NCBI GenBank assembly: GCA_965364435.1
Contig: CBDTXL010000018.1
Coordinates: 1 to 32,014 of the forward strand
Reading direction: 5' to 3'
DNA: 32,014 bases
Source of the DNA: an uncultured bacterium
Lineage (GTDB): Bacteria > Cyanobacteriota > Cyanobacteriia > Cyanobacteriales > Coleofasciculaceae
Below, one piece after another: positions 1 to 30,300 of the stretch (position 1 is its first letter; each line of letters opens with the position of its first letter). A program made the position numbers and the translations under genes. A model generated the notes under the pieces. It saw only the letters and a list, made by a program, of their open reading frames with translations, did no database searches and was not told the origin of the DNA.

Positions 1-36
1 GGGGCTAAAAAGCTTGTGTCATCAAGCCTTCAGCTT

Positions 37-64
37 GCTTGTCACCCCATCAGGGACGACCCTC
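37..64 (+). repeat. Upstream copy of the ~30-bp imperfect direct repeat; the partner lies at 11645..11675
   Basis: See the partner entry. It overlaps the putative TTG start of the E2 gene, which argues for the later ATG (93) as the true start. Confidence 0.5.
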
Positions 65-794
65 TAGCCAACTTTACTCAACTGGTCAATCTATGGAAGC
101 TCTCACTGGTCAAACCATTGCCGAAATCCTTAGCACTGCCCCTCGCCCGTTAATGGAGATTAAAGGAGAGCTGCTATTTCTTCCCGGTCAACTGCTGTTG
201 CACTGGGTTGAAAAAGGTGTTCATCACTACAAGCTTGTGTCATCCAACAGCGTCAAAGCCGCCTTTAGCCATGAACCCATCGACAGCGGTTGGCTCAGTA
301 ACGGCATTGTGCGTTGGGGTATCGGGAAGTCAGGTAACTGGGTCGTGAAATTTGTTCCACCAGGTCTGCATACCCTCTCCTTTGAAGACTCAGGCTCTCT
401 TTCAATTCCACTTCCTGGGTTAGTTTTCTTGGGATACGGCTTCCAATATTACATCTTTTGCGTCGCTGAATCTTCCTTTAACCCGGAAGCTGAAGTATTT
501 ACTGCACCCCTGCCGAATGTGTACCCAGACGGGCGAATCTGCTTCGGCTCAACTGTGCCACCTGCCTGCACCCCTAAAGAAATCGATAGTGCCTGGAAGA
601 TGTTTATCACCTCTAATTTCAACTCTCACTTAGGGTCGGGAAAGTCGAAGGCATATCCCAACGACATTAGGAAAAAGCTTTCACAAATCGCACAAAGGAA
701 GCTTAAACACTACCCCATCAAAGACCTGAACCTTTACAGAAGTAGCGTCGAGCAGGTCATCGAGCCAATTATTTATCCGAGGTATAGCTGGTAA
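39..794 (+). CDS. UBC-like E2 ubiquitin-conjugating-enzyme-fold protein (bacterial E2). The start is uncertain: TTG at 39, GTG at 15 or ATG at 93.
   Basis: The motif LPNVYPDGRICFG matches the eukaryotic E2 active site HPN-x(4)-G-x-IC (catalytic Cys in GRICFG). The stop overlaps the next start (TAATG at 792-796), so it is the first gene of a translationally coupled four-gene block. Confidence 0.6.
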   Translation: MSPHQGRPSSQLYSTGQSMEALTGQTIAEILSTAPRPLMEIKGELLFLPGQLLLHWVEKGVHHYKLVSSNSVKAAFSHEPIDSGWLSNGIVRWGIGKSGNWVVKFVPPGLHTLSFEDSGSLSIPLPGLVFLGYGFQYYIFCVAESSFNPEAEVFTAPLPNVYPDGRICFGSTVPPACTPKEIDSAWKMFITSNFNSHLGSGKSKAYPNDIRKKLSQIAQRKLKHYPIKDLNLYRSSVEQVIEPIIYPRYSW

Positions 795-1363
795 TGAAAC
801 CTGGTATCGCCTACAGAATCGCCAGTCTTGAACTCCCACTTCCAACGCATTCCTACGAGTTTGTCCTTGCCGGGAACGGAGTTTTCATTCGTGCCGCCAA
901 ACCGGGTCTTTCCGTTCAATTTCCCTTAGCTCACTGCCCTGTCCGAGGACTACCGCCGATGAAGCCTTACTTCAATATGGAAGCTCCTCGCGTTCCACGC
1001 CCACTGGTTGAGGAACTCATTAGCGCGGCAATGGCACAAACGGCAGAAATCCTTTTCTACCTGAATTGGGAACAAGACCATTGGCAATTGTCTATTCCTG
1101 GTCAAGCTCAAGATGTGGCGAGCGTCACACCGAATGAAATAGCCGGGGAGCAATACAGACACGCACTCATTGAGTGTCACTCCCACGGCAGCATGAAGGC
1201 ATTCTTCTCCCAGCAGGATAACCAGGACGAACAAGGCTTTAGGCTTTATGCCGTATTGGGCAATCTTTTGGAGCAGCCGACACTCAGAACTCGTGTGGGG
1301 GTGTTTGGCTATTTCTGGGAGATTCCTTCAACATCTGTATTTGAACTGGAGAGCGGGAGTTAA
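794..1363 (+). CDS. JAB/JAMM (MPN+) metallopeptidase, deubiquitinase-like
   Basis: HSHGSMKAFFSQQD fits the JAMM motif H-x-H-x7-S-x2-D. It lies between the E2 and E1 genes with a 1-nt overlap upstream and a 3-nt gap downstream. Confidence 0.65.
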   Translation: MKPGIAYRIASLELPLPTHSYEFVLAGNGVFIRAAKPGLSVQFPLAHCPVRGLPPMKPYFNMEAPRVPRPLVEELISAAMAQTAEILFYLNWEQDHWQLSIPGQAQDVASVTPNEIAGEQYRHALIECHSHGSMKAFFSQQDNQDEQGFRLYAVLGNLLEQPTLRTRVGVFGYFWEIPSTSVFELESGS

Positions 1364-1366
1364 CCG

Positions 1367-2245
1367 ATGAGCGTACAAATTTCCTATGATCGGATTAACG
1401 CTGTTCCTGTAATTCTGGCTACCCACAAGCATCTGCATCTGTATTTGGTTGGGTGCGGTGGAACAGGAGCGTGGCTATCCCAAACTCTAATCAGACTAAC
1501 AAAAATTCTCACGACTCAGGGACGTTCTGTTTCCCTGACTCTAATTGATCACGACCTCGTTGAGAAGGCTAATATTCCCCGCCAAAACTTTATCCAGGCT
1601 GATTTGGGCTTAAATAAAGCTCAAGTCTTAGCGTTACGCTACGGTATGGCTTACGGAGTAGATGTGATGGCAATTCCCGATCGCTTTAACCCTGAGATGG
1701 TAAGGATTGATTACAATACTCTCTCGGTGGTCATTGGTTGCGTGGACAATAGTGCGGCAAGAATTGCGATCGCTAAAACCCTCGAAGAGAATCATACCAA
1801 TGCCGCACCAAGAGTATGGTGGTTAGATGGGGGTAACACCCGCACTCAGGGTCAAGTCTTACTTGGCTCCTGGTCAGAACCCGAACAAAATCCAGCGCTA
1901 TTTGCCCACATCCCACAGGTTGATGACACCAACAACTTTACGAAACCCGTTGGCTGCGTTCACCTCCCCAGTCCCTCAATCCAGCATCCAGAATTACTCG
2001 AACCACTGCCGGAGGAATCAGAAAACCACAATTTATCTTGTGAGGAACTGGCAAGAGCAAATGCCCAGTCACTTCTGATTAACCAGCGGGTTGCCGTGGA
2101 ACTAGGAGAGTATCTTGTTGAGCTGCTGCTAGTCAAGAACTTGCGTCGATTTGCGACTTACTTTGATATCGAGACGGGTTCAAGTCGTTCTCGTTTCACC
2201 AGCGCTGAAACCCTTAAAACATTTATTGACGCAACTGTTTCATGA
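1367..2245 (+). CDS. ThiF/MoeB-like E1 (ubiquitin-activating-enzyme-like adenylyltransferase)
   Basis: LVGCGGTGAW is a Rossmann GxGxxG nucleotide-binding loop. DHDLVEKANIPRQ is the E1/ThiF signature (D-x-D-x-V-E-x-S-N-L-N-R-Q type). It overlaps the next ORF by ATGA. Confidence 0.8.
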   Translation: MSVQISYDRINAVPVILATHKHLHLYLVGCGGTGAWLSQTLIRLTKILTTQGRSVSLTLIDHDLVEKANIPRQNFIQADLGLNKAQVLALRYGMAYGVDVMAIPDRFNPEMVRIDYNTLSVVIGCVDNSAARIAIAKTLEENHTNAAPRVWWLDGGNTRTQGQVLLGSWSEPEQNPALFAHIPQVDDTNNFTKPVGCVHLPSPSIQHPELLEPLPEESENHNLSCEELARANAQSLLINQRVAVELGEYLVELLLVKNLRRFATYFDIETGSSRSRFTSAETLKTFIDATVS

Positions 2246-2805
2246 CTAAAAAACCGACAAAAAAGAAAAATAAGAGTCGGTTATCCGACTTCTTAGCCCG
2301 TCAACTTTCATGGCATTACTATAAAGACAATCAGCTACCGATTAACTGGAACATCACGATTACTGACGTTACTCGATGGCGTAATGAGATGGCATCTCGT
2401 TTCCCCGACTTCAAATTCGTGACTAAGTTTCGTGAACTCTTAGACGAGAATCATCAACCCGTCCTGGGAACACAGGAAATGGCTTTCTGGTTTGAATCTT
2501 CACTGACCGACGCTCTTGCTAATGAATGTGAAAATCCAGAGGAACACTACGTTGATGATTTTTACAGGTTGCTCAATCCTAGAGAATGGACTAGCGAGGA
2601 AGAAGCTTTATCCTGGTTCCCGATTGAAGCTTTCATCAACGAAAAAGTTGTCCCCGACTCACAAGAACGTGACCGAACCGAAGAATGGGGCGGTCCACCT
2701 GATGTCATTTGGCATGAAGGGGATGACTATAAGTGGGGAGAAAAGAGTCCCATTTTAGAATTTATTGAGACCTGTCCCAACCAGGATATCGCTCTAAATA
2801 GCTAA
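2242..2805 (+). CDS. Hypothetical acidic protein, fourth gene of the E2-JAB-E1 operon. It may be a 6E-like accessory. It does not look like a beta-grasp Ubl and has no C-terminal Gly.
   Basis: ATGA overlap with the E1 stop. Rich in conserved-looking Glu/Asp and Trp. No recognisable catalytic motif. Confidence 0.45.
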   Translation: MTKKPTKKKNKSRLSDFLARQLSWHYYKDNQLPINWNITITDVTRWRNEMASRFPDFKFVTKFRELLDENHQPVLGTQEMAFWFESSLTDALANECENPEEHYVDDFYRLLNPREWTSEEEALSWFPIEAFINEKVVPDSQERDRTEEWGGPPDVIWHEGDDYKWGEKSPILEFIETCPNQDIALNS

Positions 2806-2961
2806 GGTTTATCTGTTGGATAAACTGGAGATTTGCTGTACCTAAGTCGGGGTTGATTTACTTTCTTAATCGGCTTGAGTTAAATTCCTTTTCAAGAAGC
2901 CTCTCTACTGACTCGCGGGAGGCTTCTTATTTGGACAGCTAGCGCCGCTTCTTTTAGTTGA

Positions 2962-4305
2962 ATGTTCATCCAGTTCTCACTACCGATGTTAACACTCAAC
3001 TCCCAGCAAGATACCGCTTTAACCACGCTCCACAGATTTTGCTCCTCAAGTGAACGGCAAGCCCTTGTCAAAGGAGGTGCAGGCACTGGTAAATCTACCT
3101 GTATCCAGCAATTTGTTCAGGAATTTATTGCTAAATATCCTGACAAAAAGGTAGCCATGAGTGCGCCGACCAATAAGGCGACTAAGGTACTCAAGAAACT
3201 CGCTTCCCCCTGGATTCCTCTCGACATTGCCACTATCCACCAGTTCCTCGGCTTTCGTTTAGTTGTAGACCCCCACGGCTATGAAGTGTTGGGAAAAGCC
3301 GCAGGTAAGAGTACACTTGCCAATTACGATGTAGCGATTGTTGATGAAGCCTCAGTTATTAACACCAAGCTGAAGCAGGAAATCGACAAAACCTTACTCC
3401 CTAACTCTAAAACCCAGCTAATTTTCATGGGAGACCCTTACCAGCTCCCGCCAGTTGGGGAATTCATTTCTCCTGTGTTTCATTCGGTTAAGAGAGAGAA
3501 TACTGTTGAGTTAACTTCCGTAGTGCGACAGGCTGATGGGAATCCCCTGAGATTGCTGGTAGACGCCGCTCAAAATGCGGTTGAGAAAAATCTTCATTAC
3601 TTTTATCCACCAGACTTGCTTAATCAGATTGGACACAAACAAGACAATAGTGAGGGAGTTTGGTGGTTGCCTCAAGATACCTGGTTTGAACAGCTCGTCC
3701 GTGCGTTCACCTCTCTTAATTACCTCTGTGACGCGGATTCAGCCCGAATTATTACTTGGACAAATGAACGGGCTTATGAACTCAACCATGAGATTCGGTG
3801 CAGGATTTATGGTGAAGTCGCCGCTGACTTTCCTTACCTTGAAGGTGAACGACTAATTGCTGACGATTGTGTAACAATAAACGGGCGTACACTGATGACG
3901 ACTGCCACTGAATGCCAGGTACAACAGGTTTCAAGCATCATCGTTGGTTGGAGAAACTTTGAGTACAAGGCGTGGCAACTCCGGGTTAAGGATGACGAGG
4001 AGAATCCGTGGCTATTAACCAGAATTCATAATTCTGATATACATCGCTTTGAAAAGAACAGCGAGACACAGAGGCAAAAAGCTATCTCTACCCAAAAATG
4101 GAGTGACTTCTATGCTCACAAAGAACTCAACGCTCCCTTGAGTTATGCTTACTGCCTGACTACTTACAAAGCCCAAGGCAGCACTTTCAAAAATGGCTTT
4201 CTCGATCTAAAAGATATCATGCGAAATCGAGGAACACTGAACCGAAATCGGCACATCTACACGGGCTGCTCTCGTGCTAGTGAACGGCTCTTGGTGGGAG
4301 TCTGA
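2962..4305 (+). CDS. RecD/Pif1-like SF1 DNA helicase (AAA_30 + UvrD_C_2 type)
   Basis: Walker A GGAGTGKST and Walker B IVDEASV. ATIHQFLG is a Pif1/RecD-type motif. C-terminal YCLTTYKAQGSTF matches the T-x-H-K-S-Q-G-S-E/F motif of the RecD/TraA helicase C-terminal domain. Confidence 0.75.
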   Translation: MFIQFSLPMLTLNSQQDTALTTLHRFCSSSERQALVKGGAGTGKSTCIQQFVQEFIAKYPDKKVAMSAPTNKATKVLKKLASPWIPLDIATIHQFLGFRLVVDPHGYEVLGKAAGKSTLANYDVAIVDEASVINTKLKQEIDKTLLPNSKTQLIFMGDPYQLPPVGEFISPVFHSVKRENTVELTSVVRQADGNPLRLLVDAAQNAVEKNLHYFYPPDLLNQIGHKQDNSEGVWWLPQDTWFEQLVRAFTSLNYLCDADSARIITWTNERAYELNHEIRCRIYGEVAADFPYLEGERLIADDCVTINGRTLMTTATECQVQQVSSIIVGWRNFEYKAWQLRVKDDEENPWLLTRIHNSDIHRFEKNSETQRQKAISTQKWSDFYAHKELNAPLSYAYCLTTYKAQGSTFKNGFLDLKDIMRNRGTLNRNRHIYTGCSRASERLLVGV

Positions 4306-4396
4306 CCAAAAGAGGCTCTCGGAGAAGGGGACAGGGTGCTATCGGGATGCAAGTATCCTTGCACCCTGCCTCCTCAGGGACAGAAATTGGCACTTT

Positions 4397-4431
4397 CACG
4401 GCTTTCGAGGGTGAGCCGTGAATTGTTTTTT
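4397..4431 (+). terminator. Candidate rho-independent terminator after the helicase gene
   Basis: The 7-bp stem CACGGCT/AGCCGTG (4397-4403 with 4414-4420) has a 10-nt loop and is followed by AATTGTTTTTT. Confidence 0.4.
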
Positions 4432-4521
4432 AAGCAGGGAAGTCGCGGCTTTCTATTCTCTTACAACTAAAAGACATGACCGCTAGCGCGGAGTTGGATA
4501 GCGAGGTTTCATTCACTCGCT

Positions 4522-5649
4522 ATGACACACAACTTGAGTTTAGCTACCCAATCCGAGCCTTGCTCCTCTAACCGTGAACTCCAATCTCTTCTTGAGCACG
4601 CTGCCATCAAGCAGCATAACTTGAGCCGCCTTAACAAAACTCAAATTCGCTTCAGAATCGGTCTCAAAAAAGCCTCAAAGAGTGCGGCTCCCAAATGGTC
4701 TTCCGTCCTAGCTTCATCTTCAGTAAACGAAACTGATACCGATTCGGTGCGACTTTCAGACCTGGAAAAGATTACAACTAGTGAGGTTGGTCTCAAAGGA
4801 ATCAGCGTCTTCAAAGCTCTCGACGAAGCCGCTGCCGAACTCCGGCAGGACATTGCTGACATTCAAGGTTGGATGACTTCGGACAATGGCGAATGGGTTT
4901 GCTCAATTGACTTAGTGCCACTGGTCTGGAGTCGGATGACCTACATTCGGGATGTTAAAGCCGCTCAATTGCGTGCCAGTCTTCGGGAAGCGCACGCGGC
5001 GGGTCTTATAGAATATGCCAATCGCTTGGACAACTTCTTCTCCTGCCAAGCTTGGAGCTTGACACCGGCTGAGATTGAGGAAGTCAAACAGGTCATGCTC
5101 CAACGCTTTCCCGATGAGGCTGAGTTAGACGAGTACTTGCAAGTTGTAATGACCCGTCCCACGATTGTGCCAGCCTTGCATGAACAACTGTCCCAGCAAC
5201 AGGCGGAGTGTCTGCAACAAATCACCCGCTTCATTGCCGAATACGATCGCAATTTAGAGCAGCGCCTCTATGAAGCTGCCATCGTGGGCGGTGAGCAGCT
5301 AGCCGCAGAACTTTTGGAAGACTTGGCTTCTTGGGAACCGGGTCGTAAACCGATAGTCTTCCGCAAGAAAGTCGAAAAGCACCTCAAGAAAATCCAGGTG
5401 CTGCTGAGTCAGGCGACTCCGGAAGCCGGTTCAAGCCTCGTGCAGATGATGGAACATATTGAGGGCGTTCTGAGTACAGCCGATGTTGAAGCGAAACGAC
5501 TATCAACAGGACAGCGCTCGCAACTCCAAGAACGGATGGATACCCTTTCACAAAAGCTCTTGGGTGAGCAACGCAAGCTTCAAGAACTGGCGAGTTCCGA
5601 AGGCATTGGTTTAGCTCGTGCCACCGTAATGTCTTTGAAACTAAGCTAG
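4522..5649 (+). CDS. Hypothetical protein, largely alpha-helical/coiled-coil
   Basis: Long ORF on the same strand as its neighbours. No recognisable motif. The start is uncertain. Confidence 0.4.
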   Translation: MTHNLSLATQSEPCSSNRELQSLLEHAAIKQHNLSRLNKTQIRFRIGLKKASKSAAPKWSSVLASSSVNETDTDSVRLSDLEKITTSEVGLKGISVFKALDEAAAELRQDIADIQGWMTSDNGEWVCSIDLVPLVWSRMTYIRDVKAAQLRASLREAHAAGLIEYANRLDNFFSCQAWSLTPAEIEEVKQVMLQRFPDEAELDEYLQVVMTRPTIVPALHEQLSQQQAECLQQITRFIAEYDRNLEQRLYEAAIVGGEQLAAELLEDLASWEPGRKPIVFRKKVEKHLKKIQVLLSQATPEAGSSLVQMMEHIEGVLSTADVEAKRLSTGQRSQLQERMDTLSQKLLGEQRKLQELASSEGIGLARATVMSLKLS

Positions 5650-5750
5650 CGCTCCTATGGAGTTGGCAATGCGTTCTTTAGAGTACAGCCTTATGACGCG
5701 CATTGCCATACCTCTTCATTTGTCTTCACAACATCACCAGCGCTTTCATC

Positions 5751-6197
5751 ATGTCTCACTTTAGCCAGATCAAAACGCAGTTCAAAAACCGTGAGTGCTT
5801 AGTAAACGCTCTCATCCAGTTTAAGCTCTCGCCACAAGTCCATGAAGTTGCTCAGGCACTCTCCGGATACTACGGCTCTCAAGACTATTACACTGCCGAA
5901 ATCATTGTCCTCGGACGAACCATTCAGGCACGGGCTGATATCGGCTTCAAGTGGACGGAAGGCACTGGCAGCTACGAGGTTATTCACGATGCCTACGAAA
6001 CCGTCCCGCGCTTGGGGGGCGACTTCTTTAACAACAAGCTCCTGAGAGCTTACGGGGATTTAGTTGTGCGTGCCAAAGCAGCCGAACTACAAGAGCGGTT
6101 GGGTGAATGCACGATTACTGAATCTCACAAGGGTACTCAGCACACCCTACGACTGGCGTTTGCTGGTCATCAACACGTTCAGCAGACTCGGAGATAG
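5751..6197 (+). CDS. DUF1257 (Ycf35-like) protein. The start is taken at MSHFSQ rather than the ORF-track ATG at 5703.
   Basis: N-terminal MSHFSQIKTQFKN..L..AL is the hallmark start of the Ycf35/DUF1257 family. DIGFKW..GSYEV..D fits the family core. Confidence 0.7.
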   Translation: MSHFSQIKTQFKNRECLVNALIQFKLSPQVHEVAQALSGYYGSQDYYTAEIIVLGRTIQARADIGFKWTEGTGSYEVIHDAYETVPRLGGDFFNNKLLRAYGDLVVRAKAAELQERLGECTITESHKGTQHTLRLAFAGHQHVQQTRR

Positions 6198-6202
6198 CAA
6201 TC

Positions 6203-6421
6203 ATGCAAGAACGAGCCATTCTCATCCACTTTAATGAAACCACAGGCGAAGTCAAGATTGAAGCCGAGGGCTTTGAGGGACTCTCCTGCTTGGAAGCCAC
6301 GCAACCTTTTGAAGAGGCGTTGGGTGTCGTGAAGGAAAGCGATCGCACTTACAAACCGGAAGCACAAATCCAGCACACTCTCCGTAAAACTAACACCCAG
6401 TCTACCAGGCTGCGCCAGTAA
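6203..6421 (+). CDS. DUF2997 small protein
   Basis: The GFEGLSCLEATQPFEEALG motif (G-F-x-G-x-S-C...T...E-x-A-L-G) sits in a 72-aa protein, 5 nt after the DUF1257 stop. Confidence 0.6.
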   Translation: MQERAILIHFNETTGEVKIEAEGFEGLSCLEATQPFEEALGVVKESDRTYKPEAQIQHTLRKTNTQSTRLRQ

Positions 6422-6489
6422 CATTCCACTCGCGCCACATCACACTCCAAATACTTGCTCTGGGTGACAAACCCAGAGCCACTTTCCTT

Positions 6490-8112
6490 ATGCAGTTAGC
6501 CGACCTAATCACCACAATTAGCTCTCAAATTCCGGTTGTTGCAGTCGATGTCCTCTCTCCAGAAGAAGGCACAATTATTCAATGGATAACGCAGCAGGTT
6601 ACGAGCGAGCTGGAACTCCCAGTATATTTCTGGAATTTGGGGGTATCCACTCTTGAGCAAGCACTGATTGCTTCAGACGGTGGCTTGACCTTCAAGCTCA
6701 TTGACACCTACAAGAAGCCGCCACCCACTGACCCCTTACTGTTCGTCTTCGAGTACATCCAAAGTACCAGCAGCGATGGTGTCTTCATCTTAGGAGATGT
6801 CCACCCATTCATCGGTAAAGACTCACCTACTTTATCGTGGGAGGTTCTGACTCGCGTGAAGAACCTTTACCATCGACTCAAACCTACAGACAAGCGGATA
6901 ATTCTCTTGGGGCAAGGCATCCAATTGCACGAGTCTCTAATCCGACTAATTCCTTGCGCTGAAGTACCGCTGCCTTGTGTCGAACAAGTCCTAGACCATC
7001 TTTCCTCTTATCTTCCTTATTTGGAAGAATCGGCTACAGCACAGGACGTTAACTTTAAGGTGTCTCTCACTCCAGAAGAATGGGAGAACCTTGCACGAGC
7101 TGCATTGGGACTAACTTTGGAGGAGATATCCGACTTCTTGCGGCTTTCTATTCGGAAGCGTCTTACACCATCAGGAATTGTCATCGATGCGGCAAGCATT
7201 GCTGCCGTCGCTGAGTACAAAACTCGGCTACTCTCACAGATGGGCATTGAGCTAGGGAAACCAGCGAACATTCCTTTCGGTGGTTTGGATTTGTTCCGTG
7301 AGTGGCTCATGCGCCGCCGCCGGTTGTTCACCGAACAAGCACGTCAGTACAACTTGCCCAAACCCAAGGGTGTCTTACTTGCGGGTCCGCCAGGGGTTGG
7401 GAAAAGTCTAATTGCCAAGAACATTGCTAGTATCCTTAACCTGCCCTTGCTGAAACTGGACATCGCTGGGATGCTTGGCTCCCTCGTCGGACAGTCTGAG
7501 GGTAATGTCAAACGCGCTCTTAAGACAGCCGAGGCTATTCAACCCTGTGCGCTGTGGATAGATGAAGTGGACAAAGCCCTTTCTGGAAGTGGTGACACAT
7601 CAGGGGTTTCCCAGCGCATCTTGGGGACAATCCTTAGCTTCATGCAAGAGAGCGAAGGTGGGGTTTTCGTTATAGCAACTTGTAACGATGTCACCGCCCT
7701 GCCTTCTGAGTTTAAGCGCAAGGGCAGGTTTGACGAAAATTTCTTCGTTGACCTGCCCACAGCGAGTGAACGGGGTGTGATTCTCAAAATCCATCTGCAA
7801 CGCTTTGGTTGCTCTGTGCCAGACGAATATCTGGAGGCAATTGCCGCTGCTACTGAGAAGTTTTCTGGCTCGGAACTGGAAAACCTCGCCTCTGAAGCCG
7901 CGACTTTAGCCTTCGATAACGGACACCCGCAACAAATTACTCTCACTGAGCTGGAAGCAAGTCGTGCTGCCATTACCCCATTAGCAATCCAGGATGCAGC
8001 AGCGGTTGAGCGGATGCAGGAATGGGCACGCACCGCTCGTCCGGCATCCAGTCCGGCTCTTGATACCAGTAGTAGTCAATCTCTACGAACTCCAAAACTG
8101 CGGAAGCTCTAG
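6490..8112 (+). CDS. AAA+ ATPase, Ycf46-like (N-terminal domain plus C-terminal classical AAA module)
   Basis: Walker A LLAGPPGVGKSL and Walker B LWIDEVDKAL. RKGRFDENFFVDLPTASER resembles the Ycf46/AAA second region of homology. Third member of the DUF1257-DUF2997-AAA trio. Confidence 0.75.
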   Translation: MQLADLITTISSQIPVVAVDVLSPEEGTIIQWITQQVTSELELPVYFWNLGVSTLEQALIASDGGLTFKLIDTYKKPPPTDPLLFVFEYIQSTSSDGVFILGDVHPFIGKDSPTLSWEVLTRVKNLYHRLKPTDKRIILLGQGIQLHESLIRLIPCAEVPLPCVEQVLDHLSSYLPYLEESATAQDVNFKVSLTPEEWENLARAALGLTLEEISDFLRLSIRKRLTPSGIVIDAASIAAVAEYKTRLLSQMGIELGKPANIPFGGLDLFREWLMRRRRLFTEQARQYNLPKPKGVLLAGPPGVGKSLIAKNIASILNLPLLKLDIAGMLGSLVGQSEGNVKRALKTAEAIQPCALWIDEVDKALSGSGDTSGVSQRILGTILSFMQESEGGVFVIATCNDVTALPSEFKRKGRFDENFFVDLPTASERGVILKIHLQRFGCSVPDEYLEAIAAATEKFSGSELENLASEAATLAFDNGHPQQITLTELEASRAAITPLAIQDAAAVERMQEWARTARPASSPALDTSSSQSLRTPKLRKL

Positions 8113-8201
8113 CTGAGTCTTTCAAACCATCTTTTACCCCTAGTCTGACTTTCTAACCAACTAGATAACCAGATTGGGGATGCATCGAATGGTGGATAAT
8201 C

Positions 8202-8777
8202 ATGACTAATGAACAAAATTACCATCAAATCTACTTAGTCTTTACCAACGCAGACGCTAATAGCAACAAGTTCTGGCAAGCCGTCGCGCACCGAACGGGC
8301 TCCTTAGTTACATCCTGGGGGCGTGTAGGATACAAAGGTCAGACAAAATCTTATCAGTGCGGTTCTTATCAAGCGGCAGTTGCCAAGCTCAACCAACTCG
8401 CCTTAGCCAAGAAACTCAAAGGTTACATAGAGACGGTTGCCCAAATAGAATCGCAAGAACAATCGCTTATCAAGCGGGCAATTCAGCTCCTAGAACTCAT
8501 CCATCCTCACGTAGAGCAGCGGGATTTCAGCAACCGGAATTACCTGGATGCTCTCAATGAGTACCTCACGATAATTCCAACACCTCTGGGCATGAAAATT
8601 GACCCAGCCACCATCTTTTCTCTAGCTGAAGTGAATCGGCAACGAGAGAGTCTTAAACGACTATTAAAGCGAGTGCCGGATACACCTGAAACCCAATCCT
8701 CTTCCTCAAGTTGCCAATCCATTTCCCTCAAATCCATCTCAGCAAGCTTTTGGAAAGCGGCTCGCACAAAGAAGTAG
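8202..8777 (+). CDS. Standalone WGR-domain protein
   Basis: KFWQAVAHRTGSLVTSWGRVGYKGQ carries the eponymous W...G.R core of WGR domains (as in PARP1 and MolR). The rest is helical with a Ser-rich tail. Confidence 0.6.
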   Translation: MTNEQNYHQIYLVFTNADANSNKFWQAVAHRTGSLVTSWGRVGYKGQTKSYQCGSYQAAVAKLNQLALAKKLKGYIETVAQIESQEQSLIKRAIQLLELIHPHVEQRDFSNRNYLDALNEYLTIIPTPLGMKIDPATIFSLAEVNRQRESLKRLLKRVPDTPETQSSSSSCQSISLKSISASFWKAARTKK

Positions 8778-8918
8778 CTTTCAGCTTAAAGCGAATGGTG
8801 TCCTAAACATAGGACGGCTGGAAGCTGTTCTCTGTTTATAACTCTACATTCCTCACTACACCGCTCTTAACCGACTTCCCTTTCAAAGAAGCGATTGCTC
8901 CCGGAGCCAATAAGTTTT

Positions 8919-8954
8919 CAGCCCCCTAACTGAAAGGTTGCGGGGCTTTCATTC
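8919..8954 (+). terminator. Possible hairpin terminator downstream of the WGR gene
   Basis: CAGCCCCC...GCGGGGCT stem followed by TTCATTC. The T-tract is weak. Confidence 0.25.
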
Positions 8955-8970
8955 AATCTTCTAAGGGAAC

Positions 8971-10119
8971 ATGATGGCAAAACCCGTGATTTTGCATTTT
9001 GGGTGGGGCTGTGATAGTGCCAGCATCCTGATTGAGTGGCTGACTAACCCAACTAGACGCGACTTTGAACTAGAAAATCTGGTCGTTCTCGCTGCTCAGA
9101 CCGGAAACGAATCTCAATTGATTAAACAACAAAATGAGCAACACATTTTTCCAGTTCTTCGCAAAAATCACATTAGAACCGTTCAGGTGGCGAAGTCCGG
9201 AAATTTCCTTGCCGATGGATATGACATCTTAGATGACAGCCGCAGCCCAACAACATGCTTCACTGAGGGTTCGTTCACCCTGGCGCAGGAACTCCTCATC
9301 GCCGGAACCGTTCCCAGTTACGCGAACAAGCGGCGACGTTGCTCAAGCAAGTTTAAAGGTACGGTACTCGATGCTTGGGTTAGGGATGAATTTGGAACAA
9401 CGCCAATTCGCTCCGTGTATGGCTATAACGCCGACGAACAGTATCGAGTGGATAGAGCGATCGCCTACATTAAGGATAACGAAACCCTATCATACCCGCT
9501 CATTCAATGGAATTGGAACCGTTCCAAAACTGAGTCCTATATGGCAGCCTTTGCTGGCGAACGCTTCTATAGAAGTGCTTGTATCATGTGTCCCTTCAGC
9601 GGAATTAGCGGCACTCGCCAGGAAATTATGACCAAATACCGCCTATATCCAGAAGAGGGCGGGTTGGCAGCGTTCATCGAGTTTGTTTCAATTTGCTTGA
9701 ACCCCAGACAAACCCTTTACACTAAAAGCCGCACAGTCCCTGACTTATTGCAAGAAGACAATAATCACGCCGCCCTAGAGAACTTGAACAAACGCCTAAG
9801 AGCAACGGATTGGAGTTTGTACCAGGTTCGACGAATTTACGGCTCTTTAGTGCCCTTCCGGTCAGTGCAGAAACTGCACACTGGCTCTCGTGAGGACTGT
9901 CAAACCAAGCTGGCAACCCGAGCTTCCCAACGCAACCTTCCCCTGGTCACTGAAACAGGAATCTCCCGTCTGTACCTGGAGAGACGAGGCGATGACGGAC
10001 GAGACTGTGAGGAAATGTACGTGGTTGCTCCGGCAACCGTCCAAAGTAAAGAACGCAAATCGTTTGAGAAAAGATGGACCCAAGCACATCAGTTGACTCT
10101 AGACCTTGGCTTCAAGTGA
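8971..10119 (+). CDS. Hypothetical protein with a degenerate N-terminal PP-loop (PAPS-reductase/QueC-like fold suspected) and a Cys-rich segment
   Basis: ILHFGWGCDSASILIEWL parallels the PP-loop h-x-F-S-G-G-K-D-S-x-x-h-h with SGG replaced by GWG. CIMCPFSG supplies additional Cys residues. Otherwise no recognisable motif. Confidence 0.4.
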   Translation: MMAKPVILHFGWGCDSASILIEWLTNPTRRDFELENLVVLAAQTGNESQLIKQQNEQHIFPVLRKNHIRTVQVAKSGNFLADGYDILDDSRSPTTCFTEGSFTLAQELLIAGTVPSYANKRRRCSSKFKGTVLDAWVRDEFGTTPIRSVYGYNADEQYRVDRAIAYIKDNETLSYPLIQWNWNRSKTESYMAAFAGERFYRSACIMCPFSGISGTRQEIMTKYRLYPEEGGLAAFIEFVSICLNPRQTLYTKSRTVPDLLQEDNNHAALENLNKRLRATDWSLYQVRRIYGSLVPFRSVQKLHTGSREDCQTKLATRASQRNLPLVTETGISRLYLERRGDDGRDCEEMYVVAPATVQSKERKSFEKRWTQAHQLTLDLGFK

Positions 10120-10729: not shown

Positions 10730-11086
10730 ATGCAAACCATAACTTTTGAGCCTCTTGATTCTGCACAAAATTCAGAGCAAACTCTCAGTATCAACCTGGT
10801 CAACTTAGTCGGCAATGCTGGTGCTGACCCAACCGTAAAGTACTTTGAATCGGGCCGTGTCAAATGCACTCTTACTCTAGCTGTTCGCAGTTTGAAAAAA
10901 GACCAGCCGGTCTGGTTCAATTTAGAGTTGTGGGGTAAGACCGCAGAAGTCGCGGCGAATTATGTTCGCAAAGGCAAGCAAATTGGTGTCACTGGCTCTT
11001 TGAAGATTGAAACCTGGCGGGACCCAGCTCTAGATGTTATTCGCTCCAAACCCGTAATTATCGTATCTAACCTTTACCTACTCTAA
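10730..11086 (+). CDS. ssb: Single-stranded DNA-binding protein (short OB-fold SSB without an acidic tail)
   Basis: INLVNLVGNAGADPTVKYFESGRVKCTLTLAV...W.NLELWGKTAEVAANYVRKGKQIGVTGSL matches the SSB OB-fold consensus (LVGNLG.DPE.RYT..G..V..F.LAV......W..V..WGK.AE....YL.KG..V.V.G.L). Confidence 0.65.
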   Translation: MQTITFEPLDSAQNSEQTLSINLVNLVGNAGADPTVKYFESGRVKCTLTLAVRSLKKDQPVWFNLELWGKTAEVAANYVRKGKQIGVTGSLKIETWRDPALDVIRSKPVIIVSNLYLL

Positions 11087-11092
11087 GCTCAA

Positions 11093-11389
11093 ATGAATAG
11101 CGCAACACTCTCCGGTAAAATTCTTCAAGAACCGGAAATTCGGCACACAATTGACCAGAAAACTCTGCTTCAGATGTATATTGCCATTCCGGCAAGAAAA
11201 GAGGATGAAGAACCTTCTTTGTTAAAAGTAAGCAGTTGGAATCAAACTTGTATTGAGCAGGCTCCAACTCTCAAAAATGGCGCTCAAGTTCTCATCACAG
11301 GACGACTTGGTATCAGAACTATCGACCGTCCAGAAGGGTTTAAAGAAAAGCGGGTCGAACTGGTTGCCGAGACAATTATTCCTCTGTAG
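11093..11389 (+). CDS. Second short SSB-like OB-fold protein in tandem
   Basis: MNSATLSGKILQEPEIRHT...VSSWNQTCIEQAPTLKNGAQVLITGRLGIRTIDRPEG repeats the SSB pattern. The start codon is 6 nt after the first SSB stop. Confidence 0.5.
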   Translation: MNSATLSGKILQEPEIRHTIDQKTLLQMYIAIPARKEDEEPSLLKVSSWNQTCIEQAPTLKNGAQVLITGRLGIRTIDRPEGFKEKRVELVAETIIPL

Positions 11390-11748: not shown

Positions 11749-12342
11749 ATGGAAACTCTAACGCTGAATGTACCCCCCACTGTAGGTCTAACAGACGAGC
11801 AGTTTTATCAGCTGTGTATAGCCAACAAAGAATGGCGGTTGGAACTCACTGCTGATGGAGAATTGATTATCATGCCCCCCACTGGTGGCGAAAGCGGCAT
11901 CAGCAATGCTGGTCTGACAGCTAAACTTTACAATTGGAACGACCAAACTCAACTGGGAAAAGTCTTTGACTCCTCCACAGAGTTTCGTTTACCTAGTGGT
12001 GCCAAGCGTTCCCCCGATGTCTCCTGGGTGATACTCCAACGATGGGAAGCCTTACCGCGCTCCGACAGGAAGCGCTTCCCTCCCCTCTGCCCAGATTTTG
12101 TAGTCGAACTCCGCTCTGAGACGGATTCCCTGGAACAATTGCGGTCAAAAATGCGGGAATACCTCGCCAACGGCATCCGCCTCGGCTGGCTGATTGACCC
12201 CCAAACGCCCTTAGTTGAAATCTATCGACCTTCAAGGGATGTAGAAACTATCAACTTCTCCTTTGACGACCCGCCCACACTTTCTGGCGAAGACGTGCTG
12301 CCTGGGTTTGTCCTCGATCTGACCCCCATTCTGAATCCTTGA
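11749..12342 (+). CDS. Uma2-family (DUF820) PD-(D/E)xK putative endonuclease
   Basis: The PDFVVELRSET motif (PD-x-x-V-E...S) and the overall architecture are typical of the abundant cyanobacterial Uma2 family. Confidence 0.75.
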   Translation: METLTLNVPPTVGLTDEQFYQLCIANKEWRLELTADGELIIMPPTGGESGISNAGLTAKLYNWNDQTQLGKVFDSSTEFRLPSGAKRSPDVSWVILQRWEALPRSDRKRFPPLCPDFVVELRSETDSLEQLRSKMREYLANGIRLGWLIDPQTPLVEIYRPSRDVETINFSFDDPPTLSGEDVLPGFVLDLTPILNP

Positions 12343-12824: not shown

Positions 12825-14132
12825 CTAGCAGAAACTTTTTTCATAGAAAAACTGGCTTTCTCCAAACGCTGGAGTCAGGTCTGTTAACCAAGTCGCTGCT
12901 GGATCGTACCGAGCAAAAAACGGACGCTTACACCAGTTGGGGTCTCGTCCTTGAATGAAGGACAATACAAAGACCTTTTCGCCGTTAATTTCTGTCACGC
13001 CATCGATGAGCACCTTTCCGGGCAACGCAGACATTACGGGACCCCGTACCGTTCGAGCTAAACCAGAGACTTTTTGCAAGGCGGCCTGAAAAATTTCCCA
13101 AACCCGCACCAGTGGAACTTCAAAGCAGTGCTTTGCTCCAGTGTCTCGTTCTACGAACAGGTAGTAAGGAATGCATCCCAAATGAACTTGTTCTTGCCAT
13201 AGACGAATCCATACATCTGGGTTGTCATTGATGCCTCGCATGAGTGGCCCCTGTGTCCGGATTTGTGCTCCGGTTGAACGGATACGTTGAATTGCGACTT
13301 GAGCCACTTCAGGTTCAAGTTCTTTCCAGTGGTCGTAGTGTCCTATAATGGCTAAATGCTTCCCGGCAAGGGATACTTTCTCAAACAGACGTAATAGATC
13401 GTCGGCATCGTGATCGCTCACATATCGGTAGGGCCAGTAAGCCATTGATTTAGTCCCAATGCGAATGGTTTGGATATGCTCATTAGCTGGCTCTAGTAAT
13501 GGTTCAATGTATCGCGCTAAGGCTGAAGCCGCCATCGTCATTGAATCGCCACCTGTGATTAAAACATCCGTTACTTCTTGATGCTGACGGAGATACTCTA
13601 AAAATCTTCCAGATTCCCGCGTAGCAAACTTTTGGCTTTCTGTGCCGACAAACTGAGTCCAACGAAAACAGAACGTGCAATAGGCATGGCAGGTTTGACC
13701 CGCTGTTGGGAACACCAAAACTGTTTCAGGATATTTGTGTTGAATTCCCAGCACTGGCTCACCATCTAGCACAGGGACGTTGTGCTCCATTTGACCTGCC
13801 GGATTGGGATTGAGTTGAGTACGAATCCTAGTGATTACCTCGTGCAGGAGTTCTGGTGAAGACTGGTTTTCGAGATGCCACATGACCTTATCCAAGGCTT
13901 CAGGAGATAGCATTTCCTCCTGAGGAAAGGTCAGGCGAAAGATGGGATCTTTGGGAATATTATTCCAATCGATCAATTCTTCAACTACGTAGTTATTGCT
14001 ACGGAAGGGCAGGACATGGGCAACCGCTTGCATCACAAAGCGATCGCGCGGTGAAAGCTGTTGGAGTTGAGGCAAATGTTCAATATCTTGGATACCGTAA
14101 AAGCGCTTGATTTTCGGTTGGATTGAGGACAT
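12825..14132 (-). CDS. KamA-family radical SAM protein (lysine 2,3-aminomutase-like)
   Basis: CHAYCTFCFR is the CxxxCxxC radical SAM cluster motif in the KamA arrangement. The length and N-terminal region are KamA-like. It starts 3 nt after the STAND gene stop on the same strand. Confidence 0.8.
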   Translation of the reverse strand: MSSIQPKIKRFYGIQDIEHLPQLQQLSPRDRFVMQAVAHVLPFRSNNYVVEELIDWNNIPKDPIFRLTFPQEEMLSPEALDKVMWHLENQSSPELLHEVITRIRTQLNPNPAGQMEHNVPVLDGEPVLGIQHKYPETVLVFPTAGQTCHAYCTFCFRWTQFVGTESQKFATRESGRFLEYLRQHQEVTDVLITGGDSMTMAASALARYIEPLLEPANEHIQTIRIGTKSMAYWPYRYVSDHDADDLLRLFEKVSLAGKHLAIIGHYDHWKELEPEVAQVAIQRIRSTGAQIRTQGPLMRGINDNPDVWIRLWQEQVHLGCIPYYLFVERDTGAKHCFEVPLVRVWEIFQAALQKVSGLARTVRGPVMSALPGKVLIDGVTEINGEKVFVLSFIQGRDPNWCKRPFFARYDPAATWLTDLTPAFGESQFFYEKSFC

Positions 14133-14135
14133 TGT

Positions 14136-17100
14136 TTATGCGATCGCCCCTAGGCGTTTGAGCATTTGCTGCTGTGCGGGGCTAAGACCTGTGGTACCCA
14201 TAATAACCATGCCCTCATAAATTCTGGGAGTACGCAACACTTGCCGACATTTGCCCGCCTCCACATCCCACAGACAAATCGTCCAATCTTGACTGGCACT
14301 GGCGAGGGTTTGCCCATCTGGACTAAACACAATAGACCGAACCCAATTTGTATGCCCGTGCAGTTTTTGAGAGCATCGACCTGTAGCAATTTCCCAAAGA
14401 CTGATGGTGTTGTTTGTCCCACCGCTAGCGAGGAGGCGACCATCGGGGCTAAATGCGATCGCACGAATATATCCGTCGCCCTCGTCAAATTCGCGTTCCA
14501 TTTGCTGCGTGTGAACGTGCCAAAGTCTGAGTACTGAGTCATCTCCACCAACCGCAACCAGTTGAGAGTTGGGGTGGAGTGCGATCGCCCAGACCCGATT
14601 TTTTCCCAAACTCTGCGGCTGTTTGATTACGGAAGCCTCTCCACCGGGAAGATGCCAAATCCGAATTGTTTCATCATCACTGCCACTAATGAGAATTTGT
14701 CCATCTCGGCTATAGACCACCGAGCGTACCGTATTGTCGTGTCCCTTTAGGAGGGGAAGCCATTTTTCCTGCTGAATGTCCCAGCGCTGCACCTGCCTAT
14801 CGTCGCTACCAATCGCTAGCTGGCTGCCGTCAGGACTAAACGCAACCGCACGAACCCAAGCATCCCAGCGTTTTAAGGTCTGGAATTTGCCTGTTTGAAG
14901 ATTCCACAGTCGCACCATGCGATCGTCTCCACCCGTCGCTAACAGCTTGCCATCGGGACTAAAGGCAACCGACCATATCCGTCCTTCATGTTCGCCAAGT
15001 ACTTGACAATCGCCAGTTTGAGCATCCCATAGACGAATAACTTTGTCATCGCTGCCACTGGCTAAAGTCTTCCCGTCTGGACTATAGGCAAGCGACCAAA
15101 TAGTATTGGTGTAGCCTTGCAGCACTCGAATACAGCGAAAGGTTGAGATACTCCAAAGCCGCACTGTTTTATCATCACTGCCACTGGCTAGGATTTGTCC
15201 ATCTGCCTTAAAGCCAACAGACCAGACTCGGCTATCATGTCCTTCCAGGATTTGAATGCATTGCTGTGTACACAAATCCCATAACCTCACGGTTGTATCG
15301 TCGCTGCAACTGGCAAGGTAACTTCCTGTTGAACTAAACGCGATCGCTCGAATCACATCCGTATGCCCCTGCCAAACGGCAAAACACATTCCCTTGTGAA
15401 TATCCCAAAGCTGGATAGTGCTATCATCCCCTCCACTGCCGAGGATTTGTCCATCAGGGCTAAATGCAACCGTCCAAATGCGACCGTGATGCCCTTCGAG
15501 AACTTGTCTGCATTCCCGCTTTTGAATATCCCACAATCTGATGCTACCGTCTGCGCTTCCACTAGCAAGGGTGCGTCCATCAGGGTTGAAGGCAACGGTA
15601 CGCACAAAATCTTGATGACCCTTGAATACATGCAAACTCTTGCCATCTTTCACACGCCAGAGTCGGACGGTACAATCGCTACTCGCACTTGCTAAATAGT
15701 TTCCATCTGGGCTAAACGCGATCGACCAGACCCAATTTGTGTGTCCTTCTAACGGGGCAGCGTCAAGAGGTTCACCTGTATGGACATTCCAGAGTCGAAT
15801 GGTGTGGTCATCGCTGCAACTTGCCAGAATTTGACGCTCAAGGCTGAAGGCAAGACATCGAACCCAGTTTCCGTGTGCCCGCCAAGTGAGCAGCTTTTTC
15901 CCGTTGGTTGCCTGCCATAGGTGGATCGTGCCATCACAATCACCCGCCGCTAACCAACTGCCATCGGGACTACAGGTAACACACAAGATGCTGTCTAAGA
16001 TGTCGGTAAAACTACAGCGCGTGAACGTGGAGTGAGAAAAATCAACGTTGTGCAAAGCAACTCGTTCGAGGTCGGCTTGGCAAATGTTCAGATTAGAGAA
16101 ATTACATCCCTCTAAACTAATTTGTAAATGATGCAGTAAACGCAGAATATTTGCAGCGGCATACCCGGTTGCTAAGGATGATTTTTTTAGCTCAATTGAA
16201 ACAATGCCGAGCAAAACGTTCTTGACTTGTTCCTTGCTGCCCAGCGTTGCCATGAGACGATCGCCGAGCGGTTCCAGAATTCGAGAGATTTGAGCATCTT
16301 TGACAGTCATCTCGACGTCGGATTGGGCTTTCACCAAAACGTGACTCTCAAAAACATCGATTTCTTTCGACAGAATTTCTTGATGAATTTGCTCGATGAA
16401 TCGATAGGTGACATATTCCATAATGACTGGATGCAGTGTGAATTTTGTCACTTCGGAGCGTTCATCGATCGCAATGAGGGAGCGCCGATTCAAAGATTCC
16501 AAATCTTCCATTAACTGGAGTTTTAAATCAGGCGAGACGATATCCATTTGCAAATCCTGGAGTGAGACGGGCTGCCGCTCGATCGCCAGCCAATAGAGGA
16601 TGTCTATCTCGGGTTGCGACAGACGCTCAAACTGTTGCAATAGCAAGTCACGAATATCGCCAACAAAGACGGGAATGTTTTGCTTGAGAAATGCCGCTAT
16701 ACTGCCGCGAAATAACTCTTTAATTGTCGTTGTCACAATCTTCAGCGCCAGTGGATTGCGTTCGTACCGCTCCATCAGCGCTTGCCGTTCAACTTGGGAA
16801 CTAGACACTCCTTTTGCTCGAATAATTTCCTCTGCATCCACTTGTTCAAGTCCAAGCAATTGATAGGAGCGAACGGGTAGTGTTTCCCCTTCCAGTGCTG
16901 CGATCTCTTTCGGTTTTTCTCGGCTGGTGAGAATCAAACAACTCTGATGGGAACCTTCTCCGATTCGCCGGAAAAGCTCGCCGTAGGTTTCATAACCTGT
17001 TCGATAGACTCCTGATCGCCCTTCCTGGAACAGTGATTCCACATTGTCTAGAATCAGCAAACACCGATGCTTGCGAAGTTGTTCTAGTAACTTCGTGATG

Positions 17101-17681: not shown

Positions 17682-17759
17682 TGATACGACTTGTTGACCT
17701 CACAAAATATATTCCTAATTATAGGTCGCCGTTCTGCAAGCTATTTTCTCTATAAAAGC

Positions 17760-17792
17760 TTGACATCCTGAACTGCCTGTGGTGAAATATAG
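17760..17792 (+). promoter_or_regulatory. Candidate sigma-70-type promoter for the kinase operon (TTGACA -35 at 17760-17765, weak -10 near 17786-17792), overlapping the palindrome
   Basis: Perfect TTGACA. With 17-nt spacing it is followed by TGaAATATA (extended -10-like, imperfect). Confidence 0.3.
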
Positions 17793-17823
17793 GCTATCTC
17801 ACTTTGTGAGATAGCCTATATTT
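17785..17823. promoter_or_regulatory. Perfect 18-bp-arm palindrome AAATATAGGCTATCTCAC-ttt-GTGAGATAGCCTATATTT in the divergent STAND/kinase intergenic region. It may be an operator or an RNA hairpin.
   Basis: Directly visible: the arms are exact reverse complements with a 3-nt spacer. Confidence 0.7.
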
Positions 17824-18061
17824 ATGAGGATGCCGGAAACAGTCGTGCTCAAAACGTCGGCAGCACGTATCAGAGTCCCTATCTACAGTCCCTTATCTCA
17901 CTAGTCCTGTTAGGTTACTGACGCTTAACCCGCAAGATTTATCAATTAATTCTTTCAACGTCTTGAAACGACGTTGATTCCCAGGCGTTCGCTACTTTTG
18001 CAGGTACAGCTAAACAAGTAAAAGCCCCTATTTGTCTGAAACTAGAGAGTAGGCTACTCCA

Positions 18062-19393: not shown

Positions 19394-19506
19394 CAATATC
19401 TTTTTAATCTTACTTTAATATTTGGGAATTTTTAAGAGTCAAAAATTGTCGATTGACGAGATTTAGTTAACACCACTTCTTTGTTGTCAAAAAGGATAGC
19501 ATTACT

Positions 19507-30191: not shown

Positions 30192-30300
30192 GACTCGTCT
30201 GGCGCTATCTTACCACTCCCGCCTAGAATCAATCAGGGCGGGAGATGAATGTGCGTTGGGGCTAGCGCCCAGTGTTTACTTGCACATTCATTCAAAAAGT

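Follow-up and report, generated by a model that had tools for sequence, protein, structure and literature searches.

Gene organization at the locus

The stretch of DNA analysed here, called the window throughout, comprises the 32,014 nucleotides of contig CBDTXL010000018.1 (positions 1 to 32,014, forward strand) in assembly GCA_965364435.1, from an uncultured cyanobacterium of the Coleofasciculaceae. Its first 2.8 kb contain four head-to-tail open reading frames (ORFs) on the plus strand. The first three encode an E2-like conjugating enzyme (93..794, 233 aa, Prok-E2_D profile), a JAB/JAMM metallopeptidase with a JAB-N-like N-terminal extension (794..1363, 189 aa, Prok-JAB profile) and a ThiF/MoeB-type single-domain E1 (1367..2245, 292 aa, ThiF profile). 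The fourth, ORF4 (2242..2805, 187 aa), matched no family and is a rare accessory, or cargo, gene. The E2 and JAB genes overlap by 1 nt (TAATG at 790-796), 3 nt separate JAB from E1, and the end of E1 overlaps the start of ORF4 in an ATGA at 2242-2245. A first-pass annotation, made by a model from the sequence alone, had described this cassette, its four ORFs and these junctions, and ORF calls, profile matches and the conservation of catalytic residues confirmed it. The start it gave to the E2, a TTG at 39, had to be moved to the ATG at 93 used by all relatives; from there the protein begins ME.., like nearly all of its homologues. Preceding the E2, 55..153 (plus strand) encode the last 33 codons of a larger protein, designated F270 and recognized by homology to the end of F270 in a related locus, while positions 1..53 showed no homology to any cassette relative and are presumably the end of an inserted insertion sequence (IS). 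Past ORF4, a GC-rich 12-bp hairpin followed by AUUU (2894..2928, plus strand, RNA folding) is a likely operon terminator. On the evidence below, we consider it highly probable that 55..2245 is the 3' half of a plasmid-borne operon for ubiquitin-like protein (Ubl) conjugation, of type 6d or PRTRC-like, in its cyanobacterial form and cut by an IS4-family element.

For the upstream side, we used a 33,235-bp ENA metagenome scaffold (L001; ERZ23498675, SHIN18-1 scaffold_595) encoding the exact E1 protein; the window equals L001 minus 1,221 bp at the E2 end. Related loci (L numbers) were gathered by a representative-genome scan, which gave a 13-sequence alignment, by look-ups of homologue contigs and by a plasmid search. 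About 25 loci were collected in this way, from Cyanobacteria, Chloroflexota and Acidobacteriota. Near-identical DNA was sought in the plasmid collection and none was found.

The three enzymes retain their catalytic residues

A profile search placed the E2 in Pfam Prok-E2_D (PF14460, UBC clan; E 3.3e-28, 99 bits, cutoff 25), the match spanning profile positions 8-168 of 171. Its active-site loop reads PLPNVYPDGRIC, in which the cysteine is C150, and is followed by FG; P139, P141, N142, V143, C150 and G152 were invariant in a 25-sequence alignment. Homologues of this E2 formed only 26 clusters among 5.8 billion proteins. The JAB assignment also lay above the Pfam cutoff (Prok-JAB, 28.3 bits, cutoff 25). 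The protein contains the JAMM motif E85...H129-S-H131-x7-S139-x2-D142, and E85, H129, S130, H131, S139 and D142 were invariant in 22 sequences from related loci. About 100 residues lie N-terminal of the JAMM core, and R51 and W97 were conserved in at least 90% of the sequences. PDB sequence searches with the E2 and with the JAB gave no significant match. The E1 consists of one ThiF domain (Pfam ThiF, E 3.7e-18) with the motifs GCGGTG and DHD...NIPRQ; G29, G31, G32, G34, D61, D63, N69, R72 and Q73 were invariant in 21 sequences, and C197 and C225 were conserved in at least 90%. Thus the three motifs noticed in the first pass (a UBC-type HPN/Cys site, a JAMM site and an E1 GxGxxG loop with DHD...NIPRQ) are genuine, with profile matches far above chance and catalytic residues that are invariant in the homologues of all three enzymes.

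The E1 could be viewed as an ordinary ThiF/MoeB sulfur-carrier adenylyltransferase for cofactor biosynthesis whose neighbours are coincidental, since models of ThiF, MoeB and TcdA matched it at 1e-5 to 1e-11, and structures of TcdA did so at 5e-4. However, its best NCBIfam match by far was PRTRC_ThiF (E 6.5e-42, 143.5 bits, ~1 bit under the cutoff of 144.75). Furthermore, the gene order E2-JAB-E1 was kept in all ~25 loci, across three phyla, and the gene is plasmid-borne with no thiS, moaD or thiazole genes nearby. We therefore give this explanation almost no credence.

Intact relatives encode a Ubl two genes upstream of the E2

All loci that reached far enough upstream and were untruncated carried the same three genes before the E2. 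The intact order is an acidic protein of ~140-240 aa ending in ..LTLF (E200), a small protein with or without a fused helical domain, F270 (a helical protein of ~270 aa, 266-310 aa in relatives, that overlaps the E2 start), E2, JAB and E1. The second of these genes, two genes upstream of the E2, is predicted from its sequence to be the Ubl of the operon. Its domain of ~62 residues follows the pattern M.(I/V)..-..G........IA..D..L(R/K)..L.P.YP..AN..I.R.......I.V.K(R/K)(A/P)G.KG, with A18, D21, R42, K56, G59, K61 and G62 invariant in the alignment and G-x-K-G as its conserved end. Matches to known families were weak: Pfam Prok_Ub detected 3 of 12 members (best E 0.0046) and PRTRC_C a single one (0.027). 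Free-standing Ubls stop 1-2 residues past the glycine, directly after ..GPKGR in L019 and ..GSKGVK in the Oscillatoria nigro-viridis plasmid. Fusion of the Ubl to a helical domain of ~80 aa ending in ..P.GF was found in most loci, among them every close relative of the window; on other elements, this domain is a separate gene. The closest intact relative, L033 (ENA ERZ5540420 NODE_102), carries, in this order, E200, a Ubl-helical fusion (144 aa), F270 (273 aa), E2, JAB, E1, ORF4, a helicase and a 375 aa protein.

Two variations on this layout were observed. In the two loci of a Blastocatellia metagenome-assembled genome (MAG; L016 8383..8868 and L017 8334..8768), a Cys-rich, zinc-ribbon-like domain follows the G-T-K-G of the Ubl in place of the helical domain; there, the helical domain is an ORF of its own and the upstream acidic protein has grown to 640-664 aa. 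In a metagenomic relative (L022 3741..5411), a 556 aa protein with EAD1 and HEAT repeats is inserted between E2 and JAB.

Probable replacement of the upstream half of the operon by an IS4-family element

The DNA of L033 was 92.9% identical to the window contig over 4,276 nt, in an alignment beginning exactly at window position 54, and blastn homology to L005, L020, L023, L033 and L034 always started at this same point (L001 1275). The F270 remnant at 55..153 is in frame, ends in ..DDPLANFTQLVNLWKLSLVKPLPKSLALPLAR immediately before its stop codon and overlaps the E2 by 61 nt, as in L033, where the C-terminal end of F270 is ..MWLEDDSIANFTQLVNLWKLSLVKPLPKSLALPLAP. Upstream of the window, L001 3..1064 contain an IS4-family DDE transposase gene (Pfam DDE_Tnp_1, E 1.1e-11) cut by the contig end. 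The stop of homology at 53/54 and the adjoining transposase indicate that the cassette was 5'-truncated through an IS4-family element, and that it does not represent a new Ubl-less architecture.

Hidden Markov models (HMMs) of E200, the Ubl and F270, run against the six-frame translation of the whole 33.2 kb contig, returned nothing below E ~0.9. This agrees with the first-pass statement that the window has no Ubl gene, which is missing because the IS occupies the place of the operon's upstream half. The intact relatives also bear out the expectation that a Ubl belongs upstream. The further suggestion that it might sit just outside the window was right about the side but not about the place, which holds the transposase, the Ubl of the relatives being two genes up; inspection of the ~1 kb upstream for a small Ubl ORF revealed the F270 remnant and then the IS4-type transposase, and no Ubl. 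Likewise, the stop codon at 6-8, read in the first pass as the end of an upstream ORF, does not terminate any ORF of at least 30 aa when the 1.2 kb of extra upstream contig in L001 is taken into account. When the missing half of the operon was sought in the same sample, the ENA Ubl matches looked up derived from other samples. We also considered a circle in which the joined contig ends would bring an upstream module from the 3' end of the window next to the E2. In plasmids of Nostocales and Oscillatoria, a Gp157 gene precedes the E2 by ~3 kb, and the window has one near its far end, at 29619..30191. This placement is a hint that the two ends of the contig adjoin on a circular molecule, where the gap between them would hold the IS and the missing half. 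However, the ORFs after Gp157 (30130..31751) showed no similarity to E200, Ubl or F270, which makes an upstream module at the 3' end of the window unlikely.

The cassette belongs to operon type 6d and is a distant sister branch of canonical PRTRC

Row 6d in Table 1 of Iyer, Burroughs and Aravind (2006) groups a Ub-like protein, a JAB with JAB-N, an E1-like protein, an E2-like protein and a rapidly diverging alpha-helical protein, and lists Anabaena PCC 7120 and A. variabilis among its members (PMC1779556). Plasmids of both these cyanobacteria were matched in our plasmid search with the E2. The kinship to the E1/E2/JAB operons of these authors, proposed in the first pass, is thus borne out and can be narrowed down to row 6d: the window cassette is the cyanobacterial branch of this type, whose TIGRFAM name is PRTRC. 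The Pfam families of row 6d are Prok-E2_D, Prok-JAB and Prok_Ub. All three enzyme families pass their Pfam thresholds in the window, the JAB bears the N-terminal extension, and directly upstream in the intact relatives lie genes for a small beta-grasp Ubl, whose C-terminal Gly is conserved, and for a rapidly diverging helical protein. The window copy differs from row 6d in that the Ubl is absent and the helical partner reduced to its last 33 codons, and the clade differs in the fusion of its Ubl to the ~80 aa helical domain.

PRTRC stands for ParB-Related, ThiF-Related Cassette, a set consisting of ParB, A-F and ThiF found on proteobacterial integrative and conjugative elements and plasmids. 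The window cassette resembles it in its location on a mobile element and in its best NCBIfam matches. However, the E2 scored 60.8 bits against PRTRC_B (cutoff 131.45) and the JAB 58.7 bits against PRTRC_A (E 5.5e-16, cutoff 101.8), around half of the cutoffs, and the E1 fell just below that of PRTRC_ThiF. No PRTRC ParB, C, D, E or F was detected among the 10 window proteins scanned with NCBIfam (39..10119) plus 3 more, the remaining ORFs having been compared with Pfam only, and the upstream partner genes of the cyanobacterial relatives gave no significant match to PRTRC C, E or F. The cassette is therefore a distant sister branch of PRTRC and not an equivalog.

ORF4 is an accessory gene between the E1 and a likely terminator

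ORF4 encodes a protein with a pI of 4.7, a lysine-rich basic N-terminus and the C-terminal end ..IALNS, which gave no match in Pfam, NCBIfam, PADLOC or PHROG. Its homologues formed one cluster in 5.8 billion proteins, and an exhaustive phmmer search of 1.84 billion proteins found nine representatives. It is 93-95% identical in L033 and P0027. Among the fetched cassette-bearing loci only L033 carried it; L005, L020/L023, L021, L028, L034 and every distant locus lacked it. In the comparison with L020/L023, the E1 stop and the hairpin are set apart in the window by an insertion, 2228..2860. The best distant homologue (49-53% identity) was found in contigs without E1, E2 or JAB. Structure prediction of 2242..2805 with AlphaFold2 gave helices only, at a predicted local distance difference test (pLDDT) value of 41.7, and the protein is probably helical. 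Because it is rare, patchy among relatives and found without the enzymes, we conclude that ORF4 is an unrelated accessory gene which landed between the E1 and the terminator, and that it is not a Ubl, a substrate or a partner. The first-pass view that the fourth protein is no Ubl therefore holds, as its predicted all-helical structure, of low confidence, and its end in ..IALNS and not Gly had suggested. The alternative role offered there, a 6E-like partner or substrate, fails on the absence of ORF4 from most relatives and its occurrence apart from the enzymes. Moreover, 6e is the label of an operon type (poly-Ubl, Bil Type I), and not of a protein fold, domain or partner.

The hairpin at 2894..2928 folds with -20.8 kcal/mol (z = -3.6; 0 of 200 shuffles were as stable). 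It is homologous to the sequence from L020 8367 onwards, just past the E1 stop, and lies directly 3' of the E1 in relatives without ORF4, a placement consistent with a likely terminator of the operon. Scans for promoter and terminator consensus sequences were uninformative, and a simple terminator scan missed this hairpin, whose loop exceeds 8 nt.

These observations bear on the possibility that the window cassette is complete and functional, with ORF4 or a small downstream protein such as DUF2997 (6203..6421, 72 aa) acting as modifier or dedicated substrate. The overlap of ORF4 with the E1 stop, its high identity in L033 and P0027 and the DUF1257-DUF2997-AAA-WGR synteny seen in L023, L028 and L033 could be read in this way. 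But in L033 a TAA stop and a spacer of ~26 nt part the E1 from ORF4, and comparison of the two sequences indicates that the ATGA overlap in the window is the product of a lineage-specific deletion of ~26 nt; hence the coupling of E1 and ORF4 put forward in the first pass stands as to the overlap and not as to its conservation. The distribution and the predicted structure of ORF4 also argue against such a role. As for DUF2997, which we tried as a cryptic Ubl and rejected, it ends in ..TRLRQ, with no C-terminal Gly, and its synteny is limited to close relatives, pointing to a shared backbone rather than to functional linkage. A complete cassette in the window is accordingly very unlikely.

The enzyme genes show no sign of relaxed constraint

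The ratios of nonsynonymous to synonymous substitution rates (dN/dS) between the window and L033 were 0.11 for E2, 0.26 for JAB and 0.13 for E1, and 0.14, 0.16 and 0.13, respectively, between the window and L005. When substitutions were polarised using L034 as outgroup, the window branch had accumulated 44 synonymous and 23 nonsynonymous changes, and the branch of the intact L033 46 and 33, respectively (Fisher p = 0.40). There is thus no sign of relaxed constraint on the three enzyme genes of the window; a recent truncation could account for this, or the enzymes may still act, for example with a Ubl supplied in trans.

Damage was also found in relatives. In L005/L003, unrelated genes lie upstream of an F270 remnant of 88 aa and the 3' end of the E1 is replaced; against an HMM of 12 full-length F270 relatives, the L005 remnant aligned at positions 189-265 of 270 (E 1.7e-19). 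From the abundant L028-type contigs, F270 is gone, together with the first 32 codons of the E2. This last variant (L028 10435..10477; JGI 3300072620 and ~30 similar contigs) still has the Ubl, the JAB and the E1 and turns up in many samples, and judging from it F270 and the E2 N-terminus may be dispensable. Some genomes hold several copies of the cassette: in Pseudanabaena galeata CCNP1313 the E2 occurs on at least 4 plasmids, and one Blastocatellia MAG has two loci.

One explanation is that the trio is a decaying relic, non-functional since the loss of its Ubl and persisting only because the truncation is recent. The loss of the 5' half to the IS, the lack of a Ubl in 33 kb and the independent damage in L005 and L028-type contigs are all compatible with it. 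On the other hand, no ORF of the trio is broken and none lacks a catalytic residue, their dN/dS values of 0.11-0.26 are low and the window branch is unrelaxed relative to the intact L033 lineage, the remainder of the operon may lie past the IS, and paralogous copies, often present as in P. galeata CCNP1313 and the Blastocatellia MAG, could provide a Ubl in trans. We regard a relic as quite possible while short of probable; the trio is either recently orphaned and non-functional or dependent on a Ubl in trans from a paralogous copy.

Several points weigh against our interpretation of the window as an IS-cut 3' half of a 6d operon. Iyer et al. described a His C-terminal to the catalytic Cys of the E2 as 'absolutely conserved' (PMC1779556). 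This residue is H179 in the window (within FNSHL), but its column contains D, A or S in several homologues, although F176 and N177 are invariant. The homology of the accessory genes to those of canonical PRTRC is unproven, and the PRTRC_A and PRTRC_B scores are far under their cutoffs. Since the contig breaks off within the IS, an intact 5' half of the operon could survive beyond it, and a trio that still functions would show the strong purifying selection just as a recent truncation would. Finally, our literature search found no experiment on any member of a 6d/PRTRC operon, the biochemical steps being all inferred.

Comparison with anti-phage conjugation systems and the plasmid setting

Experimental papers were found for two related kinds of system: the Cap2/Cap3 proteins of the cyclic oligonucleotide-based antiphage signalling system (CBASS; 6b), and Bil in its Type II form (6c), together with the related Type I (6e). 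Bil (Type I corresponding to row 6e, Type II to row 6c/CEHH, or Bub) likewise combines a Ubl, an E1, an E2 and a JAMM deubiquitinase (DUB), and in Type II this DUB removes the residues after the conserved Ubl Gly before adenylation by the E1 (PMC10557695). The Ubl tail past the conserved Gly parallels the G-x-K-G plus extension of the 6d relatives. BilD, however, is a two-domain E1 (an inactive and an active adenylation domain, with a CYS insertion), unlike the 292 aa single-domain E1 of the window; the E2 families also differ, and the setting of 6d is plasmid replication and transfer and not defence islands. Type II CBASS shares the E1, E2 and JAB chemistry, together with a weak E1-level similarity to Cap2. 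Yet Cap2 is an E1-E2 fusion, whereas the window genes are separate and the intact relatives have a Ubl-encoding module; Pfam revealed no CD-NTase or CBASS effector in the window. PADLOC defence models did not match the E2 or the JAB, and the E1 gave weak, ThiF-level matches (Cap2-type E1-E2, 7.9e-8; BilD, 6.7e-4). The Bil and CBASS anti-phage logic invoked in the first pass is therefore an analogy and not membership.

Relatives of the E2 were found by tblastn on 69 plasmids, mostly large cyanobacterial ones, of which 38 were typed as conjugative, and none was found among phage records. The plasmid hosts included Nostoc, Tolypothrix, Pseudanabaena, Leptolyngbya, Planktothrix, Oscillatoria and others; the Pseudomonas and Burkholderia plasmids in the match list carry canonical PRTRC. 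On pOSC7112.01 of Oscillatoria nigro-viridis PCC 7112 (L035; MOBP relaxase, MPF_T), a series of genes running from relaxase and RecG to Gp157 is followed by a seven-gene cassette, OSC7112_RS31850-31880. Directly past the ThiF/E1 of this 6d cassette, and convergent with it, lie a DncV-like CD-NTase and a SAVED-domain effector of CBASS (L035 14388..17967). This could be a coincidence or a borrowed Cap2/Cap3-like function; nothing similar was seen in the other loci examined.

Anti-phage defence of the Bil or CBASS (Cap2/Cap3) type, in which the Ubl or an effector enzyme would be conjugated to phage or host proteins on infection, has in its favour the common E1, E2 and JAMM enzyme logic, the weak PADLOC matches of the E1, the CBASS pair of pOSC7112.01 and a protective role against invasive replicons, on which Iyer et al. 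(2006) speculated (PMC1779556). Against it stand the failure of PADLOC models to match the E2 or JAB, the short single-domain E1, which is neither a BilD nor a fused Cap2, and an E2 of family D, outside the Bil and Cap2 families. A CD-NTase was absent from the window and from all examined loci besides pOSC7112.01, no phage record contained the cassette, and its surroundings were consistently genes for plasmid replication and transfer. On conjugative plasmids it lies next to relaxase, RecG, SSB (single-stranded DNA-binding protein) and primase genes, which suggests that it helps to establish or maintain the plasmid or acts in conflict between elements; this backbone context favours such a role over classic anti-phage defence, which we judge improbable. 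A more specific proposal, to which we attach a small probability, is that the orphan trio is under selection without a Ubl in cis, using one from a paralogous plasmid or conjugating something other than a Ubl as Cap2/Cap3 do, and that the broader 6d/PRTRC-like family would be a device for conjugative-plasmid establishment or anti-defence with a ubiquitin-fusion-style precursor, and not an anti-phage system.

Other genes in the window

Judged by its gene content, the remainder of the window resembles a plasmid of cyanobacteria or another kind of mobile element. A RecD-like helicase was recognized by profile search, and prim-pol and PriCT_2 proteins are encoded in addition to Gp157. The block at 5703..8777 consists of DUF1257, DUF2997, a Cdc48/FtsH-like AAA+ ATPase (540 aa) and a WGR + PARP_reg protein, and is the one that keeps its place beyond the cassette in L023, L028 and L033; the ATPase also matches the anti-phage IetA/IteA models at ~1e-20. 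In two Chloroflexia loci (L010 and L018), a WGR protein lies ~4 kb upstream of the E2. Positions 8971..10119 encode a 382 aa protein without a Pfam match that resembled PHROG 424 (PAPS-reductase-like, 6.4e-9). Two tandem SSB genes (118 and 98 aa) at 10730..11389 adjoin a Uma2 nuclease-like gene (11749..12342). The stretch 12825..23339 is rich in signalling genes, as is typical of filamentous cyanobacteria: on the minus strand, a weakly radical-SAM-like gene and a WD40 protein of 1181 aa; on the plus strand, a Ser/Thr kinase-GUN4 fusion, an SPFH/Band-7 protein with a zinc ribbon and an FHA-kinase. At 24194..25985, a serine recombinase gene (Resolvase N-terminal domain) overlaps an OrfB_IS605/TnpB-like gene with a Cas12f-like TNB domain, an IS607-type arrangement.

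Proposed mechanism and significance

By analogy with BilABCD, a working model can be drawn for the complete system. The JAMM peptidase would trim the residues past the Ubl Gly, be it 1-2 residues or a whole fused helical domain, and the ThiF-type E1 would then adenylate the exposed G62. Carried as a thioester, the Ubl would pass to Cys150 of the E2, a divergent enzyme of putative UBC fold, and from there to target lysines, the co-encoded partner proteins being obvious candidate targets, and the JAB might also reverse the modification. In the window, all of the operon before the last 33 codons of F270 would have given way to the IS4-family element, leaving the trio without Ubl or partners in cis.

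The window copy is thus a new, divergent and damaged member of a computationally predicted system. The 6d/PRTRC operons are a bacterial E1/E2/JAB/Ubl family predicted in 2006, and our analysis now shows a coherent branch of it in Cyanobacteria, Chloroflexota and Acidobacteriota, which in Cyanobacteria sits on large, often conjugative plasmids. The gene order of this branch is now defined in full, as is the invariant G-x-K-G with which its Ubl ends. The value of the finding rests on the Ubl-fusion precursor and on well-defined intact relatives, such as L033, L023 and pOSC7112.01 of O. nigro-viridis PCC 7112, rather than on the copy in the window.

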